The notes under the pieces: generated by a model | Databases searched by the model: none | What the model saw: the letters and a program-made list of their open reading frames with translations, nothing else | What the model was told of the DNA's origin: nothing | Origin: a virus | Strand: one strand, 5' to 3' | Virus record (IMG/VR): IMGVR_UViG_3300035670_000049 | Span: 32,001 to 96,000 of that record | DNA: 64,000 nucleotides | Made by a program: the position numbers and the translations under genes | Part shown: piece by piece, positions 6,645-32,518 of the stretch | Numbering within the stretch: position 1 is the stretch's first letter | Layout: each line of letters opens with the position of its first letter

Positions 6645-7669
6645 GAGAGTATTTTACATTTGATGATGTGCTGATACGGCCAGCATATAGCGAAGTTGAC
6701 TCAAGAGAGGAAATATCGACGGAACAAGAGTTTCTCGGTATCCCCATGAGCATTCCTGTTATTTCTGCCAATATGGATTACATAACAGGGGATGCAATGG
6801 CCTCTGCTATGCACCATGAGGGTGGATTAGGCATATTACACCGCTTCGCTCCTTGGGCCGACCAAAAGGCTAATATCGAAAAAATTTATACGAATACAGG
6901 CATTGTTGCATTCTCTGTTGGCACCCGGTTCCCAACCCAGTCCATTGATCGGATCAAAGAAGTCAGCGATATGCTGAACGGACGATACCCACAAGCACGG
7001 ATCGTCTGTGTTGATGTTGCGCATGGGCACCATAAGAAAGTGATGGACCTCATTGGACAAATCAAATCCCAATTTCCAGAATTTAGAGTTATTGCAGGAA
7101 ATGTTGCTACAGCGGAAGGAACTTCTGATCTTGTTGCAGCAGGAGCAGACGCAATTAAAATTGGCATTGGCCCCGGAAGTGTATGCACAACAAGGATTGT
7201 TACGGGCGTCGGCGTTCCTCAACTTTCTGCAATTATCGAATGCTCTAATTTCGCTAGACCAAGAAATATTCCAATTATTGCTGATGGTGGTATTCGAAGT
7301 GCAGGAGACATTGTAAAGGCATTAGCCGCTGGTGCAGATGTAGTCATGTTAGGGAGTCTTCTTGCGGGCACTGAAGAAGCCCCCGGAGAAGTTATTGATA
7401 CAGGGAGAGGTAGACGTGTTAAACGATATCAGGGTCAGTCTATCTTCGGGACAAATGACGCTTTATTTACCCGCGAAGGTATATCAGGCTTTGTCGATGC
7501 GAAAGGCCCTGTTACGAGTGTCCTTAAGCAACTCATGGGAGGGTTACGAAGTGGTATGTCATATGTCGGGGCCTTCACACTCGCAGAGTTACGTCAGAAC
7601 ACTGAATTTATTAGAGTCAGTCATTCTACCACAGTAGAGAATCATCCGAGGGTAAGTGAGTATATATGA
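6629..7669 (+). CDS. IMP dehydrogenase/GMP reductase family enzyme without CBS domains (GMP reductase-like)
   Basis: [31 protein letters not shown] (catalytic Cys), IIADGGI, EGISG; the flap lacks the IMPDH RY dyad. Confidence 0.92.
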
Positions 7670-12072: not shown

Positions 12073-12458
12073 TCGAAAGTGACCTTTGGGGAAGCTCGGT
12101 GCAGAGCATAAACTCATACCAGCGCACTCATATATCCTAGCCAAAGTCTACTAATCTGGTAGACTTACCAAGGGATTGCGGGCATGGGCTAATCATATAC
12201 TATATCACTAGTATATAAACAGGAACAGGAATGAAATACTAATCTAAACAGTATTCGATTGTATATCCTATGCGCCCCATTCATAGTCGAGTATCCATTG
12301 GCTTGCGTGTCAATTCTGATCGCCGCTCCATTGGCTCAAAGCTAAGATTTCTTTATTTAGCTAAGATTTCTTTATCCAGGATTAGAACTGAACGGATATT
12401 CTAATTCAATTCGGTATCTTTATTCGCCAGCGAATTAGCAGGGACTAAGGGAATTAGA

Positions 12459-12839
12459 TTACTTGGACTTGGCGGGCTTCTCGGGCTCGGGCTCGATAAC
12501 CTCGGGCTCGGGCTCGGGATTCCGCAGGGCTTCCAACTCTGCCGCGATGCTATCCGCATCGAGTCCCTGCGCAGCGGTCCGTCCGCGCTTCCCCTCGGGA
12601 AGTGTGAGCGTCCCTGCATTCAGGTCGAGTGCGAATCCATCCGCCAGCGCATCGGACTTGTCAATGTTCTTGGACGGGATCGAGAGTTTATCCTTGCGGA
12701 TCACCTTGCCATCCGCATCGGTTTCGGTGGAGTAGAAAACTCCGCTGACCGTGTAGAGGCGCTCGGGATTCCGCTCGGCGGTCTTGCCCGTGGGGCGGGT
12801 GACTCGCATCCGCTCCACCAGATAGGTGACTAGTGCCAT
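12459..12839 (-). CDS. Early protein A (LTLPEGKRGRT family, acidic PE-repeat tail)
   Basis: RBS AAGGGAG; clear paralog of 13354-13647; flanked by inverted repeats. Confidence 0.8.
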   Translation of the reverse strand: MALVTYLVERMRVTRPTGKTAERNPERLYTVSGVFYSTETDADGKVIRKDKLSIPSKNIDKSDALADGFALDLNAGTLTLPEGKRGRTAAQGLDADSIAAELEALRNPEPEPEVIEPEPEKPAKSK

Positions 12840-13353
12840 TGTAGGCTCCCTTCGGCTAGTCCCCTAGTCCCTGCTATTCACTTGGTAAGGTGCTGGCCGG
12901 TGGTTCCATGTCCATCCGACATACAGAACTATATCCTCCGCGTAAAAAACTCGATAGAGCCATAGGTCCCAAAACTTTGTGACCTTTGGCCCTTGACAAG
13001 CGACGAGCTTTGTGCTAGGGGGGCCAGGTTGCGTGGTTGCGCAAGTACGCAATTGTTGCATGCGCAGCTAACTACCCCCACCCTCCATTGGCTTCCCTCC
13101 CCCATGTGGATATATAAGTGAATCAGTATACTTATATAGAACTGGATGTAATATGAAATCCAATAGTATAACAGTAACTGGATTGAAATTCAAATTCGAT
13201 TATAGAACACATCAAATTATGTAATGCGTAACATAAATGATACGTACTCCATTGGCTCAACATTAAGAACAGGTTAAGAATTCTTAATCAAATATTAATA
13301 TATAAGTGAATTAGTAATGTTAAGAGGAGAAGCGAGAGTTTAAGTTAGAGAAT

Positions 13354-13647
13354 TTACTCCTTGCGCAAAGAATTCAATTCCTTTGCGATATCGTCTGCGG
13401 TTAGGCTAGCCATTGCGGTTCGGCCCCGCTTACCTTCAGTAAGAGTAAGAATACCCTTATTGATATCGATAACCGTAGCCTTATCGCGTGCTTCATCGAA
13501 AGTAATTACCTTCGATGTGATGCTAAGCGGCTGCCCCTTATCGTTAGCAAAGACCCCGAAGATTGTGCAAAACCTATCGGGATGCTTTTCGGCCATCTTG
13601 TCGGATGGCTTAACGACGCGCATCTTGGCGATATGGTAGGTCGGCAT
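13354..13647 (-). CDS. Early protein B (LTLTEGKRGRT family)
   Basis: RBS AGGAGGTG before ATG 13647; paralog of 12459-12839; flanked by inverted repeats. Confidence 0.8.
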   Translation of the reverse strand: MPTYHIAKMRVVKPSDKMAEKHPDRFCTIFGVFANDKGQPLSITSKVITFDEARDKATVIDINKGILTLTEGKRGRTAMASLTADDIAKELNSLRKE

Positions 13648-13765
13648 ATTTATCACCTCCTTTCATCACAGGTCATGTCCTGTGTTAGTCAGACGGTGTA
13701 AATTCTCGCCTCTCGCTCTCGCTTCTCTTCTCTTATCTCACCGCCTCCTTGCCGGTGGCAAAGCC

Positions 13766-28793: not shown

Positions 28794-29134
28794 TATCTAA
28801 TTACTCCCTTGAAATGATCCCTAGCATCAACAACTTGATAACCATATGGGAGATTTTTGAATGTCATTGCCATTCTAAGTTTGGCGATAGGATTGGATGT
28901 ATGAATAAAGAAGAAATCAACATCAACTGTTGTATTATCTTCAAAATACATCCGCTCTAGTTCTTTTACTAAATCGTATCCTTCCCTTTCTGCGTAATCA
29001 TCAAGATCATTATCTAGCCAAACTTGATCCCAATGCCCATCTACAAGTTTTTCACAAGCAGTATCGAAATCCCTGGCATATACGGCATCAAATTTAGCGA
29101 TGCGAAGATCATCAATCACTAGTTGTCTCATCAT
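28793..29134 (-). CDS. Cyclic-phosphate-processing receiver-domain-like protein
   Basis: LVIDDLR...VWLDNDL...GYD.V...IHTSNP..K..M matches the LDD.R/LDHDLG/GYD/HSANP pattern. Confidence 0.75.
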   Translation of the reverse strand: MMRQLVIDDLRIAKFDAVYARDFDTACEKLVDGHWDQVWLDNDLDDYAEREGYDLVKELERMYFEDNTTVDVDFFFIHTSNPIAKLRMAMTFKNLPYGYQVVDARDHFKGVIR

Positions 29135-29588
29135 ACTCCACTACAATCAGATCATTGATAGAGCAGTTGCATTCAGGCTTACTTTCTGAAAAATAGAAAA
29201 TTGACCGTGCCCCGATCCATCCAATGTTTTTGGTTGACCATCGCAAATCCGTATGGTTCTTGCACGTCAATGCAATATGCTGACCATAAGGCTGATTTGG
29301 ATCAATAGTCTCAGTCCGCTGAATACGCTCTGCATTTTCCTTATTTACTTGCTGACAATCAGCACATTCGTCCTTTTCCCACCGACGAGCATTATGCATT
29401 TCGAAATGCTTGTGGCACAACAGGCCAAGTGCCCTATCCTGCGGACAATTGTAATTGCTGTGAATATCCTCGCCAGTATTTACAAACTTCTTTAGAGGCT
29501 TTTCACAGACACATTCATGATTGGTTAGCGTTGTCATTTTACTTGCTCCCAAGAAACTTGATATCCAGATCGGATTTCTTTCCGCCAT
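29112..29588 (-). CDS. Cys-rich hypothetical protein (start probably MTTLTN)
   Basis: C.NH..LRWSTKNI..IGARSIF. Confidence 0.6.
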   Translation of the reverse strand: MAERNPIWISSFLGASKMTTLTNHECVCEKPLKKFVNTGEDIHSNYNCPQDRALGLLCHKHFEMHNARRWEKDECADCQQVNKENAERIQRTETIDPNQPYGQHIALTCKNHTDLRWSTKNIGWIGARSIFYFSESKPECNCSINDLIVVEYDETTSD

Positions 29589-30123
29589 ACTGGAGATATT
29601 CGAAGATTTTCTTTGCTACCTCATTCTGGAGGCCGATCCAAACTTCACCATTCACCATATTGTATACGCGATAACCATTCCTCCGAATATTGTCGAGATA
29701 CATTGCATGGAGAGTGGAATTCTTTTCTCTGCCGTATCCCGTATACCGAATGCTAGAACTTCCCTTATTGGTTTTTGCGGCCATAAGGGAATTCTTTGTG
29801 CGACTCTTGGTTCGATCCCTTTCGATCTTGCTTTTCGTAGCCTCGGGAGTATTCAGACCCTTATAGGGCATTCCATTAGTTGGATGATTTTTGCGCCACG
29901 ACATATCTTCGGCATCTTGCACCATATCTTCACCGATGATTTCGATGCCTTTTGTGACGCTGAAAACCTCGATCTTATCTACGGCAAATCCCTCTGCCCG
30001 ATACTCTTTTGCAAAGATATTCGCCATCCGTGGAGAAAGCATTTCCTCCACGATTTTCCCATCAATAACGAGATTGTATCGACGGGTTTTGATCTGGTTC
30101 TCAGAAACGATCATATTTCCCAT
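29539..30123 (-). CDS. First gene of the leftward early array, basic hypothetical protein
   Basis: Directly downstream of a strong promoter. Confidence 0.75.
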   Translation of the reverse strand: MGNMIVSENQIKTRRYNLVIDGKIVEEMLSPRMANIFAKEYRAEGFAVDKIEVFSVTKGIEIIGEDMVQDAEDMSWRKNHPTNGMPYKGLNTPEATKSKIERDRTKSRTKNSLMAAKTNKGSSSIRYTGYGREKNSTLHAMYLDNIRRNGYRVYNMVNGEVWIGLQNEVAKKIFEYLQYGGKKSDLDIKFLGSK

Positions 30124-30181
30124 TTTTTATCTCGCTTTCTTTCTGCCTCTCTGTTTTCCGTCGCTCAATTCCACTACGATA

Positions 30182-30210
30182 ATAGTAGCACGAATCGGGC
30201 GGCTTGTCAA
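30182..30210 (-). promoter_or_regulatory. Promoter TTGACA-N17-TACTAT (extended -10)
   Basis: Direct sequence. Confidence 0.8.
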
Positions 30211-30334
30211 GGGGTAAAATAGGCTATTTTGATGCCTAGCATAAAATCGTAAAAACGCCTGGAAAAATTCCCTAGAAAATACGCGGTAAAAATCCCGGCC
30301 TTCCCGTGGACAGTATATAAAAGGACGGGCGCGC

Positions 30335-30381
30335 GTGGTACCACATTTTTTGTTCCCTGTCAAGGGCCATTTGTCACAAAG
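30335..30381 (-). promoter_or_regulatory. Promoter TTGACA-N17-TACCAC with upstream CTTTGTGAC element
   Basis: Direct sequence; element shared with 12975-12998 and 12050-12072. Confidence 0.55.
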
Positions 30382-30620
30382 TTCGTAAAATTGCTATTTT
30401 ACCCTGAAAAAGCTCGTAGGACTTTACCTAGAATAAAACCCAGAATTTCCTCCCCGAGCTTAGAAATATTTTTTACGGCTAGGAATTTTATTTTTACGCC
30501 CTGAGTAACAGGCTCCCCAATGAAATTCGATTTTAAACTGGGCCTCTAAACTACCTCAAAAATAGCGCGACTAAATTCCTGACTATTTCGATGATATAAA
30601 ACCTATTTTGAAAATAAGTG

Positions 30621-30649
30621 TTGACAAGGGGAGCGCGGGCTGCTAGGAT
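30621..30649 (+). promoter_or_regulatory. Promoter TTGACA-N17-TAGGAT
   Basis: Direct sequence. Confidence 0.7.
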
Positions 30650-30727
30650 GCTCCCAGCGGTCGATGATCCGACGCGAGGGGTCAGGGACAGGGCAGACGG
30701 AGAATTCGCTAGAAAACTCCACCGGCC

Positions 30728-30756
30728 TTGACAGGGCTCCAAAAGAGTGGTAAAAC
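30728..30756 (+). promoter_or_regulatory. Promoter TTGACA-N17-TAAAAC
   Basis: Direct sequence; start site falls just before the 5' stem arm. Confidence 0.7.
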
Positions 30757-30830
30757 ACTCTCGTACCTTAACAACCGAATATAGTCTGCGAGATTAGTTA
30801 GCCTAACCCAAAGGAAAGGAAAACACTCTG

Positions 30831-31433
30831 ATGGCTAAGGCTACAAATGGTCAGGCTGAGAATACTCGGTCTGCCACAATCACTGTTGGCGTTGAGAATG
30901 GTGCAGGAAATGCCGTTCTTGCCGCATGGCAGGGAATTTACCACCTATTCGGTGGGCGCGGAAACTTTGAGATTACACCCGATGGTGTGATTGTCAATGA
31001 TTTCAGCGTTGATGGGAAGTATGATCCTGAGCAGATTGCTAAGGATATCTCTCATCGCAATAGGCGACTTGATCTTGTTCCCACTTATCTGTGGGTACAG
31101 GGCATGGAGCCTGAGCCCTTTGCAGATGCCAAGGAAATGACCCAGTTTATGGTTCAGTATTTCCGGGGCTCTGTTGAGGAAGGTTCTTCTCGCTCTCCTA
31201 AGTACGTTAGGGATGCGGTTGCAACCTTTAAGGCAAGCCACAATCTTGCCAAAAAGCGTGGGCCTCGCAAGAAGATTTTCCGTGTGGATAATCTTAGCGA
31301 GATTGACGAGAATACTCTCGTTGGAGTTAATGCATCCGAACTCTCCAAACTCCGCGATGCAATTGAGAAGGCTCTTGCGACTGCTGCCACGAATACTAGT
31401 GGGGAGTCGCAGGAAGCCCCCGCTACAGTTTAA
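30831..31433 (+). CDS. Early protein C (200 aa, KKRGPRK motif), ORF enclosed by a 30-bp RNA stem
   Basis: RBS GAAAGGA; first gene of the rightward array. Confidence 0.85.
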   Translation: MAKATNGQAENTRSATITVGVENGAGNAVLAAWQGIYHLFGGRGNFEITPDGVIVNDFSVDGKYDPEQIAKDISHRNRRLDLVPTYLWVQGMEPEPFADAKEMTQFMVQYFRGSVEEGSSRSPKYVRDAVATFKASHNLAKKRGPRKKIFRVDNLSEIDENTLVGVNASELSKLRDAIEKALATAATNTSGESQEAPATV

Positions 31434-31505
31434 GTATCTGCTAACTAATCTCAACGATTATATTCGGTTGTTTCCAATTTCATCATACACTTTTAAGGGA
31501 ATACA

Positions 31506-31781
31506 ATGGCTGCACAGAGAATTCGTCATGCAAAATCTGTTCGTGAGGCAGAACAGATGCGTGACGAATTTATTACGCTTGGATACAAGGTAGAATCCTC
31601 TGGAGAGAATACTACCATCGTAAAGAAAACTTCTTGGGGCTCTGTTTCAGGGCATTTGCTAGTAGCCCTTTTTACCGTTTGGTGGACACTAGGGCTTGGA
31701 AATCTTGCTTATGCGCTAATTGCGCATAAGTCAGACGAGGTTCTAATCAAAACTGATGAGGAAGCGCTAACAACTTCTTAA
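31506..31781 (+). CDS. Small membrane protein
   Basis: WGSVSGHLLVALFTVWWTLGLGNLAYA. Confidence 0.7.
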   Translation: MAAQRIRHAKSVREAEQMRDEFITLGYKVESSGENTTIVKKTSWGSVSGHLLVALFTVWWTLGLGNLAYALIAHKSDEVLIKTDEEALTTS

Positions 31782-31802
31782 GTGTTGCGCCTTTTATCCT
31801 AA

Positions 31803-31852
31803 AGGGGCTAGTTAATCCAAGGGCAAGGATTGGCTAGCCCTTTTTATTTCTT
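31803..31852 (+). terminator. Rho-independent terminator
   Basis: AAGGGGCTAGTTAATCC/GGATTGGCTAGCCCTT + T-tract. Confidence 0.75.
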
Positions 31853-32051
31853 TTTAAGGACAATAATTGTGGAAGATGTAATAGAATTTACTATTCTTTC
31901 GAGAAAGGCACATAAAGCGAAGAAGGAACATATTTGTCACGCTTGTAAACAGCCTATTATGCCCGGAGAGAAGTACCTTAAAGAAGTAGCTATTATTGAT
32001 GGAGACTTTAAAGAAATTAAATCTCATAGGAGCGAACCTTATTTTGAGTAA
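31830..32051 (+). CDS. Small Zn-binding protein (true start ~31870)
   Basis: KAKKEHICHACKQPIMPGEKY. Confidence 0.6.
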   Translation: MASPFYFFLRTIIVEDVIEFTILSRKAHKAKKEHICHACKQPIMPGEKYLKEVAIIDGDFKEIKSHRSEPYFE

Positions 32052-32073
32052 GCAGTTTATCACATACCGTGTA

Positions 32074-32265
32074 ATGAAGCATTCTGATATTTTAAAATGC
32101 CCCAAAGTAATCCTTCTTCCAAGTCATTATCGAGAAGATGGCTCTTGCCTTTGTGACGTACCGACTTGTGAATGGGATTTTCCTTGTGAAAACTTAAAAT
32201 ATAAGGAGGAGATTTATTGCAAGCACCATCTAAAGGAGATGGGAGAATTTGACGATGAACTATAG
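32074..32265 (+). CDS. Small Cys/His protein
   Basis: CPKVILLPSHYREDGSCLC. Confidence 0.55.
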   Translation: MKHSDILKCPKVILLPSHYREDGSCLCDVPTCEWDFPCENLKYKEEIYCKHHLKEMGEFDDEL

Positions 32266-32518
32266 AATTAAAAAGGTTGATATTGGTAAAAATACTGAAG
32301 TAATCGGAGTTGACATGGGAACAACTCCGATTTTGTGGGCTTGGAATCGTAAATACGTAGTTATTAAACTACGCGGGCATTCCGCATGGACTGCTCGCTG
32401 GGAGACAGGCTACTTTGGAGCCTATTTCCAAGTATTAGAAATTATTGATCAAGACGAAACATATTGGAATTGCAAGGAAGTTATTGAAATTCCAGTTAGA
32501 TTGGATAATAAGTCATGA
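32249..32518 (+). CDS. Hypothetical protein
   Basis: Coupled ORF. Confidence 0.6.
   Translation: MTMNYRIKKVDIGKNTEVIGVDMGTTPILWAWNRKYVVIKLRGHSAWTARWETGYFGAYFQVLEIIDQDETYWNCKEVIEIPVRLDNKS

Follow-up and report, generated by a model that had tools for sequence, protein, structure and literature searches.

A boxA-like motif and a long leader–trailer helix frame early protein-coding genes of an uncultivated phage

Why should a phage gene for a protein lie between the two strands of a long helix, of the kind that encloses ribosomal RNA (rRNA)? The question is posed by the window analysed here: a 64,000-nucleotide (nt) stretch, bases 32001-96000 of the 120,336-base-pair (bp) IMG/VR virus record IMGVR_UViG_3300035670_000049. 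In it, an open reading frame (ORF) for a 200-amino-acid (aa) protein, P0001, follows a motif resembling the boxA of ribosomal RNA (rrn) operons, and is flanked by leader and trailer strands that can pair with each other. BoxA-directed antitermination by Nus factors and a leader–trailer helix cut by RNase III are textbook features of rRNA operons; boxA is found in lambda nut sites as well. The cargo of the phage cassette is a conserved protein-coding ORF, not rRNA or tRNA (no tRNA genes were found in the window), so the cassette resembles an rrn stalk but is no rRNA operon. Its parts, in order, are these:

30763-30781, plus strand: boxA-like motif GUACCUUAACAACCGAAUA, matching 17 of 19 positions of the Chloroflexota rrn leader/spacer motif GAACCTTAACAAYTGAATA
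30770-30802, plus strand: 5' (leader) strand of the leader–trailer helix, from repeat search, duplex energy and fold
30810-30820, plus strand: Shine-Dalgarno (SD)-like AAAGGAAAGGA, outside the helix; GAAAGGA is conserved in the alignment
30831-31433, plus strand: cargo ORF P0001, 200 aa, a conserved family; the ATG at 30831 is outside the helix
31440-31472, plus strand: 3' (trailer) strand of the helix, beginning 6 nt past the TAA stop codon (31431-31433)

The helix is real, beyond chance. An inverted-repeat search returned the two arms, 33 nt each with 637 nt between them, and when the leader was aligned neutrally with the reverse-complemented trailer, 29 Watson-Crick pairs, one G-U pair and a 3x3 loop resulted. 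From outside to inside, this amounts to 17 bp including the G-U; a 3x3 internal loop (UGC/AAC); and 13 perfect bp, just as a first-pass annotation of the sequence had described. The arm duplex has an energy of -43.4 kcal/mol (RNAduplex). Three observations exclude coincidence. First, no comparable inverted repeat exists in the 120,336-bp genome: others with arms up to 4 kb apart reach 16-17 matched bases at most, leaving that of the cassette the longest. Second, the strongest three leader/trailer duplexes among 272 ORFs are those of the 200-aa gene and of two other genes, A and B, described below. Third, the helix closes both the minimum-free-energy and the centroid folds of the 719-nt transcript. 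This message (30762-31480) folds at -293.8 kcal/mol, compared with -214.7 kcal/mol for dinucleotide shuffles (z ~ -12); the closing helix, at -43 kcal/mol, explains only part of that excess stability.

Does selection maintain the helix, and does it act on RNA? The comparison set consists of 19 distinct loci fetched from viral and metagenome contigs, and within it every locus with both flanks retains a helix of 20-35 bp between the leader and the first nucleotides past the stop codon. Inner-stem sequences are unrelated between clades. A swap test makes the point quantitatively: cognate arms pair at a mean of -37.8 kcal/mol, arms taken from different loci at a mean of -18.0, and cross-pairing is seen only among close relatives. 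Moreover, the non-Watson-Crick positions across loci comprise 32 G-U and 13 A-C. Because G-U outnumbers A-C in this way, the pairing is best understood as that of the sense RNA, not as a DNA repeat or the pairing of an antisense RNA.

Because the trailer arms came out misaligned when the whole cassettes of all 19 loci were run through MAFFT, column-wise counts were limited to the six closest loci; the 19-locus evidence is that of the per-locus duplexes and the swap test. For the six loci, an unfitted MAFFT alignment read against the window's own structure contains 71% paired cells, compared with 36-52% in slid controls. Nine pairs are altered on both sides, a number reached by 1 of 500 shuffles, and for covariation the observed score, 0.229 (shuffles, 0.162), was attained in none of 500. 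Covariation in homologous phages had been set beforehand as a check on the first-pass proposal of an RNA-level stalk; it was found, and together with the sense-strand G-U bias it bears that proposal out. Thus, selection on the RNA maintains the helix. Near its middle a small internal loop or bulge is seen repeatedly, with a trailer side that is A-rich (AA, AAC, AAA) in many loci, and bulges and indels distinguish the two arms of single loci. All 19 loci are oriented alike with respect to promoter and boxA.

The second conserved element is the boxA-like motif at the 5' edge. The first-pass annotation had noted, by eye, a resemblance to rrn leaders; the likeness turns out to be stronger than claimed, since the 17/19 match is to a Chloroflexota boxA that itself leads into a leader–trailer helix. 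All loci carry the motif G-N-A-(C/A)-CTTAACAA-(G/C)-(T/C)-GAA-(T/G)-A just upstream of, and overlapping, the leader arm, and in all cassettes it stands 50-70 nt upstream of the ATG. Variants include CCTTAAAAA in L035 and L041, CCTTGAAAA in L037, and one degenerate copy in L036. A search of the 120-kb genome with the 17-mer ACCTTAACAA[GC][TC]GAATA, allowing up to three mismatches, returned only two copies (30765, plus strand; 12891, minus strand), both leading directly into a leader strand.

The position of the motif indicates that it acts in RNA. It is transcribed in the sense direction, downstream of a promoter (P1 in the window, see below). The helix begins at motif position 5-11 in the phage loci, the place that boxC takes in rrn leaders, and does likewise at Chloroflexota 16S and 23S genes. 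By comparison, the spacing from promoter -10 to motif runs from ~7 to ~40 nt (~110 nt from P1 in the window). Because this spacing varies while the motif stays fixed to the helix, the motif is not part of the promoter, and a promoter-proximal DNA element was dismissed as an explanation on the same grounds (>100 nt from P1). Primary sequence is kept even where it is unpaired: in the GTGAATA clade the helix starts at AAGTGAA, leaving CCTTAAC outside it.

Which boxA does the motif resemble? Against the published gamma-proteobacterial consensus GYTCTTTAANA, it matches 7 of 10 specified positions. One relative, L037 (2451-2500), has GAACCTTGAAAACTGAATA in place of the CCTTAACAA type. This contains the cyanobacterial spacer boxA GAACCTTGAAAA at 12 of 12 positions, followed by 6 of 7 positions of the cyanobacterial D4 box (both elements are described in PMC8461337). 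The boxA variant (cyanobacterial-type in L037, CCTTAAAAA in L035 and L041) may track the host clade. Separately, an 18-mer scan of viral contigs returned 8 contigs beyond two known relatives, about the chance number by a rough estimate of collection size and with unrelated flanks; these were not used.

The closest counterparts lie in bacterial rrn operons. When GAACCTTAACAANTGNATA was scanned in one genome per prokaryotic species, at least 120 stretches matched, with ~70 expected by chance (4^17, 596 Gb, both strands). Among the matches listed, 35 of 80 are from Chloroflexota: Anaerolineae, Chloroflexia, Dehalococcoidia, and Caldilineae. In nine Chloroflexota loci the motif lies 42-105 nt before 16S (L066, L094, L098, L106, L120, L122, L123, L130, and L131), and in two, 52-107 nt before 23S (L113 and L057). 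The geometry is exactly that of the phage in L098, L066, and L113, where a helix with the rRNA trailer takes its 5' strand from the bases right after boxA, or from a stretch that includes it. All three matches to the motif (up to one mismatch) in a 3.2-Mb Chloroflexia chromosome fall within the rrn operon, the complementary trailer strand accounting for one. RNase III and NusB are both encoded in four motif-carrying Chloroflexota genomes; domains for neither were found in the phage genome.

Not every match is of this kind. About 22 listed matches in Peptoniphilaceae and other Firmicutes are not rrn operons and were set aside as one conserved element with near-identical flanks. This 19-mer (L052, L054, L060, L063, L067, and others) lies ~200 nt upstream of the pemK RNA motif (RF02913), with flanks near-identical over at least 60 nt; its carriers include Anaerococcus, Peptoniphilus, Finegoldia, Streptococcus, and Atopobacter. 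This is probably a single mobile element that has spread widely and carries a boxA-like sequence. Within Chloroflexota, six loci (L064, L076, L088, L093, L108, and L124) have no rRNA in the fetched sequence. A further locus, L070, from an Anaerolineaceae metagenome-assembled genome, has boxA at 7061-7079 and a tRNA at 6849-6921, both on the minus strand, placing boxA ~140 nt upstream of the tRNA; no rRNA gene occurs within this 8-kb locus. Such matches without rRNA may reflect contig breaks or non-rRNA use of boxA in the host.

The boxA type, together with the soil, sediment or wetland origin suggested by contig names, points to a Chloroflexota host. The phage's IMPDH-like protein, compared with 151 Chloroflexota genomes, shows ~50% identity to ubiquitous homologs, which is uninformative as to the host. 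To our knowledge, there are almost no characterised Chloroflexota phages.

Two further cassettes in the window have the same design:

12426-12893, minus strand: gene A cassette, with motif ACCUUACCAAGUGAAUA from 12891, 5' strand 12886-12859, and 3' strand 12453-12426
13303-13751, minus strand: gene B cassette, with ORF 13656-13354 (100 aa, a paralog of A) and a helix of -45.1 kcal/mol; monocistronic

Gene A (ORF 12839-12459, minus strand, 126 aa) is likewise monocistronic, with a helix of -42.7 kcal/mol, and its motif also matches 17/19 positions of GAACCTTAACAAYTGAATA. A search for relatives by exact peptide words found none; its orthologs were reached via the motif search. In each of two related complete genomes, G001 and G002, the motif occurs three times, and a helix around a P0001 ortholog or an A/B-type gene follows each occurrence. 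BLASTP of P0001 against gene A gives no alignment. Because the P0001 and A/B cargo families are thus unrelated by this measure, the module is portable. BoxA of gene B is decayed in the window genome and intact in the orthologous cassettes of G001 and G002.

The P0001 cassette sits at a strand switch. Genes to one side of a ~700-bp control region (30124-30830) run leftward; on the other side begins a rightward array of small early genes, of which the cassette ORF is the first. Its remaining signals are as follows:

30621-30649, plus strand: P1, a sigma-70-type promoter TTGACA-17-TAGGAT with TG, from a consensus scan, ~110 nt upstream of boxA
30728-30756, plus strand: P2, a candidate proximal promoter TTGACA-17-TAAAAC, read from the sequence, with a weak -10 not called by the scan
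30744-30761, plus strand: hairpin AGAGUG-GUAAAA-CACUCU, 3 nt before boxA, overlapping the P2 -10
31801-31854, plus strand: intrinsic-terminator-like hairpin (31801-31844) with a T-run, after the next small gene (31506-31781, 91 aa)

The first-pass annotation had placed a start site ~7 nt upstream of the leader arm. That placement depends on a candidate promoter, P2, which is weak and uncalled by the scan; the called promoter is P1, farther upstream. L004 and L005 contain a TTGACA...TAGGAT element similar to P1, and the -10 boxes at the P2 position are better in relatives (GATAAT in L004, TACACT in L023). TTGACA-type promoters stand 7-110 nt upstream in all 18 related loci with upstream sequence, and in the A and B cassettes.

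The hairpin lies 2-4 nt upstream of boxA in the window and in L004, L005, L020, L037, L038, and L039, with stems that differ and covary; in the other clade it is weak or absent. Tentatively, this hairpin might be boxB-like, as in rrn leaders. At the other end, the 31801-31854 element is the likely end of the transcription unit in the window phage, and in eight or more relatives the 3' arm is directly followed by a hairpin with a U-run that resembles an intrinsic terminator. Because terminators follow the trailer arm or the next gene, the module would serve its own cassette and not read-through of a long early array; antitermination for the array, the other role that had been suggested in the first-pass annotation, is therefore unlikely as the main one.

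The cargo protein P0001 has 24 homologs, 44-85% identical and all unannotated. Pfam returned no family for it or its neighbours; PHROGs, searched with cargo and neighbours, returned only a weak 'virion structural protein' match for the cargo (E 0.0012), which was disregarded. An AlphaFold2 model (mean pLDDT, the per-residue confidence score, 79) had no Foldseek match in the PDB at E up to 0.001, and nothing was found for the cargo in the ESM Atlas. The best VIA-align Z, 3.7, is below a trustworthy level (C-terminus, H-NS-like coiled coil; N-terminus, KH-like alpha/beta). The P0001, A, and B proteins each have a basic K(K/R)G(R/P)R stretch, then a helix with an ...EL..LR pattern near the C-terminus. 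The stretch may be an AT-hook-like nucleic-acid grip. The common KRG(P)R motif is not evidence of homology, because P0001 and gene A do not align.

The wider setting is that of a phage. The record has direct terminal repeats, and the window carries genes for DnaB, primase, a RuvB-like ATPase, class II ribonucleotide reductase and proteins resembling tail fibres, along with further typical phage functions. The cassette region had no blastn match in 50,697 phage records, nor did 29500-32500 match Rfam at E up to 1.

How might such a cassette work? In rrn operons, NusB-NusE on boxA nucleates an antitermination complex in which the leader is fixed at the RNA exit of polymerase. With this complex elongation is about twice as fast and Rho is blocked, and RNase III cuts the leader–trailer helix co-transcriptionally to a strongly increased extent (PMC8632103; bioRxiv 10.64898/2026.03.17.712431). 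The helix is essential for 30S subunit formation (PMC10250234). Moreover, boxA can act on mRNAs (PMC5725501). The phage cassettes reproduce every sequence-level component of the rrn system, with SD and ORF in place of the rRNA.

A rather probable reading is that the gene sits in an rrn-mimic expression module, in which host NusB/NusE would bind boxA and an RNase III cut would free an end-paired mRNA. Nus-factor recruitment and RNase III cleavage are proposed because the architecture is identical to that of host rrn operons; like the benefit to stability and expression, they are what we infer from layout. The module would comprise one or more promoters; an optional hairpin; a host-type boxA; the 5' helix strand; SD and ORF; the 3' strand; and often a terminator.

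Five steps can be envisaged. Host RNA polymerase would initiate at the sigma-70-type promoter(s). Host NusB-NusE(S10) would then assemble on the nascent boxA RNA and nucleate an rrn-type antitermination and chaperone complex, presumably conferring faster elongation, resistance to Rho without coupled translation, and tethering of the leader at the RNA exit. The 33-bp helix would close once the trailer strand emerges, 6 nt past the stop codon. Host RNase III would cleave the helix, as it does around pre-16S and pre-23S rRNA. Finally, a monocistronic mRNA would be released with its SD exposed and its ends in an exonuclease-resistant duplex stub, severed from the boxA-Nus complex and from downstream RNA. 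This detachment would matter because a Nus-boxA loop can repress translation (suhB, lambda N; PMC5725501). A circularised mRNA, also raised in the first-pass annotation, finds no such place in the scheme; nothing supports covalent circularisation. On a broader scale, it is an even call whether ~120-kb phages, probably of Chloroflexota, hijack the host machinery for rRNA transcription and processing for two or three early mRNAs per genome. The cassettes might also divert Nus factors from the host rrn operons.

Several points weigh against the rrn-mimic module. Some boxA bases of the window clade (AACAAC...) are taken up by the helix, and this pairing could compete with NusB/E binding; the boxA of a Dehalococcoidia 16S leader, L066, is likewise partly paired. 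Small mid-helix loops or bulges in several clade members would have unpredictable effects on RNase III. The helix of gene B persists without boxA, so the helix has value by itself. The case for a Chloroflexota host is partly circular, resting mainly on boxA type and contig origin, and we know of no studies of Nus factors or RNase III in Chloroflexota. Last, in the cases of suhB and lambda N as PMC5725501 recounts them, a Nus-bound boxA near the SD can repress translation.

The alternative that survives best, though unlikely, is that the helix gives only end protection and insulation. It would shield the message from 5'-end-dependent RNases and 3' exonucleases and insulate its fold, with no cut and no Nus factors; the boxA-like sequence would be kept for some other purpose, for example as part of the helix or as a site for a phage factor. 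The strong helix of gene B (-45 kcal/mol), with no recognisable boxA, fits such a role. SD and start codon are always outside the helix, and a terminator directly follows the cassette in most relatives, so that no cut is needed for a monocistronic RNA. However, end protection does not readily accommodate the primary sequence of the motif, kept where it is unpaired (CCTTAAC in the GTGAATA clade); its 17/19 match to a host rrn boxA; and its confinement to the rrn operon in one host chromosome. Moreover, long perfect double-stranded RNA (>20 bp) is a generic RNase III substrate, and the candidate hosts encode the enzyme.

A second alternative, quite improbable, is a variant of the rrn-mimic module in which repression is the point: a Nus-boxA loop would keep ribosomes off the message until, with the trailer transcribed, RNase III separates boxA from it, in the manner of the lambda nutL/N leader and RNase III. 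There are precedents: Nus-boxA represses suhB translation (PMC5725501), and, by the account in that source (its refs 28, 29), N and Nus factors at nutL repress N translation and RNase III relieves it. The placement of boxA 50-70 nt upstream of the ATG in all cassettes would suit such control. By contrast, strong promoters and strong SDs at the heads of early regions look built for high output.

Far less probable still is a DNA-level repeat, whether as the ends of an invertible segment or small mobile cassette or as paired operator sites for a DNA-binding protein. Formally the layout would suit an invertible switch, since a 637-bp segment downstream of an external promoter lies between the arms of an imperfect 33-bp inverted repeat. 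But the orientation is the same in 19/19 loci, the arms carry bulges and indels and G-U-biased differences (32 to 13), the ORFs on either side of the cassette (29112-30123 and 31506-31781) yielded no recombinase or transposase domain, the repeat lacks target-site duplications, and the same architecture surrounds the rRNA genes of putative hosts.

If the rrn-mimic module is correct, rrn boxA and processing helix would together constitute a portable frame around ordinary protein-coding genes. The cassettes would offer a natural system in which to study the effects of antitermination complexes and end pairing on mRNA: speed, Rho resistance, uncoupling from translation, and stability. They would also reveal a phage route to very early, very high expression; provide in the boxA type a sequence marker for the host phylum of uncultivated phages, here pointing to Chloroflexota; and suggest a compact layout for engineered expression cassettes. 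Searches of the literature found no earlier account of a protein-coding gene enclosed by a leader–trailer helix with boxA.

Parts of the arrangement do have parallels. Early transcripts of T7 and T3 are cut by host RNase III into defined, stable mRNAs at helices with small internal loops. The phage cassette shares with them an early transcript and a helix with a small internal loop; T7 sites differ in being local intergenic hairpins of about two helical turns, with no boxA and no pairing between the 5' and 3' ends of one message. BoxA-regulated mRNAs (suhB of E. coli and Salmonella, and others) likewise have boxA in the leader, <100 nt from the start codon, but there it serves translational repression and Rho termination, with no leader–trailer helix (PMC5725501).

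What the lambda nutL/N leader has in common with the cassette is a boxA of host type ahead of an early gene and, as PMC5725501 presents it, an RNase III target, putative in the cassette, that parts Nus-bound RNA from coding RNA. In lambda, however, the boxB hairpin is 3' of boxA and N protein is needed; the RNase III hairpin is local; and the purpose is terminator read-through. In the cassette, the leader strand directly follows boxA and the sole local hairpin is 5' of it, an order shared with rrn leaders (no search for N-like proteins was made).

The nearest relatives, then, are the Chloroflexota rrn operons themselves. Shared features are the 17/19 boxA; its direct run into the 5' strand of a long-range helix of 20-35 bp, with the 3' strand past the cargo; the promoter(s) upstream and terminator downstream; and, in some members, the upstream hairpin. 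Unlike rrn operons, the cassettes are phage-encoded in two or three copies per genome and span 0.4-0.7 kb; and within each the cargo is a translated ORF, of 200 aa or of 100-126 aa, with its own SD.

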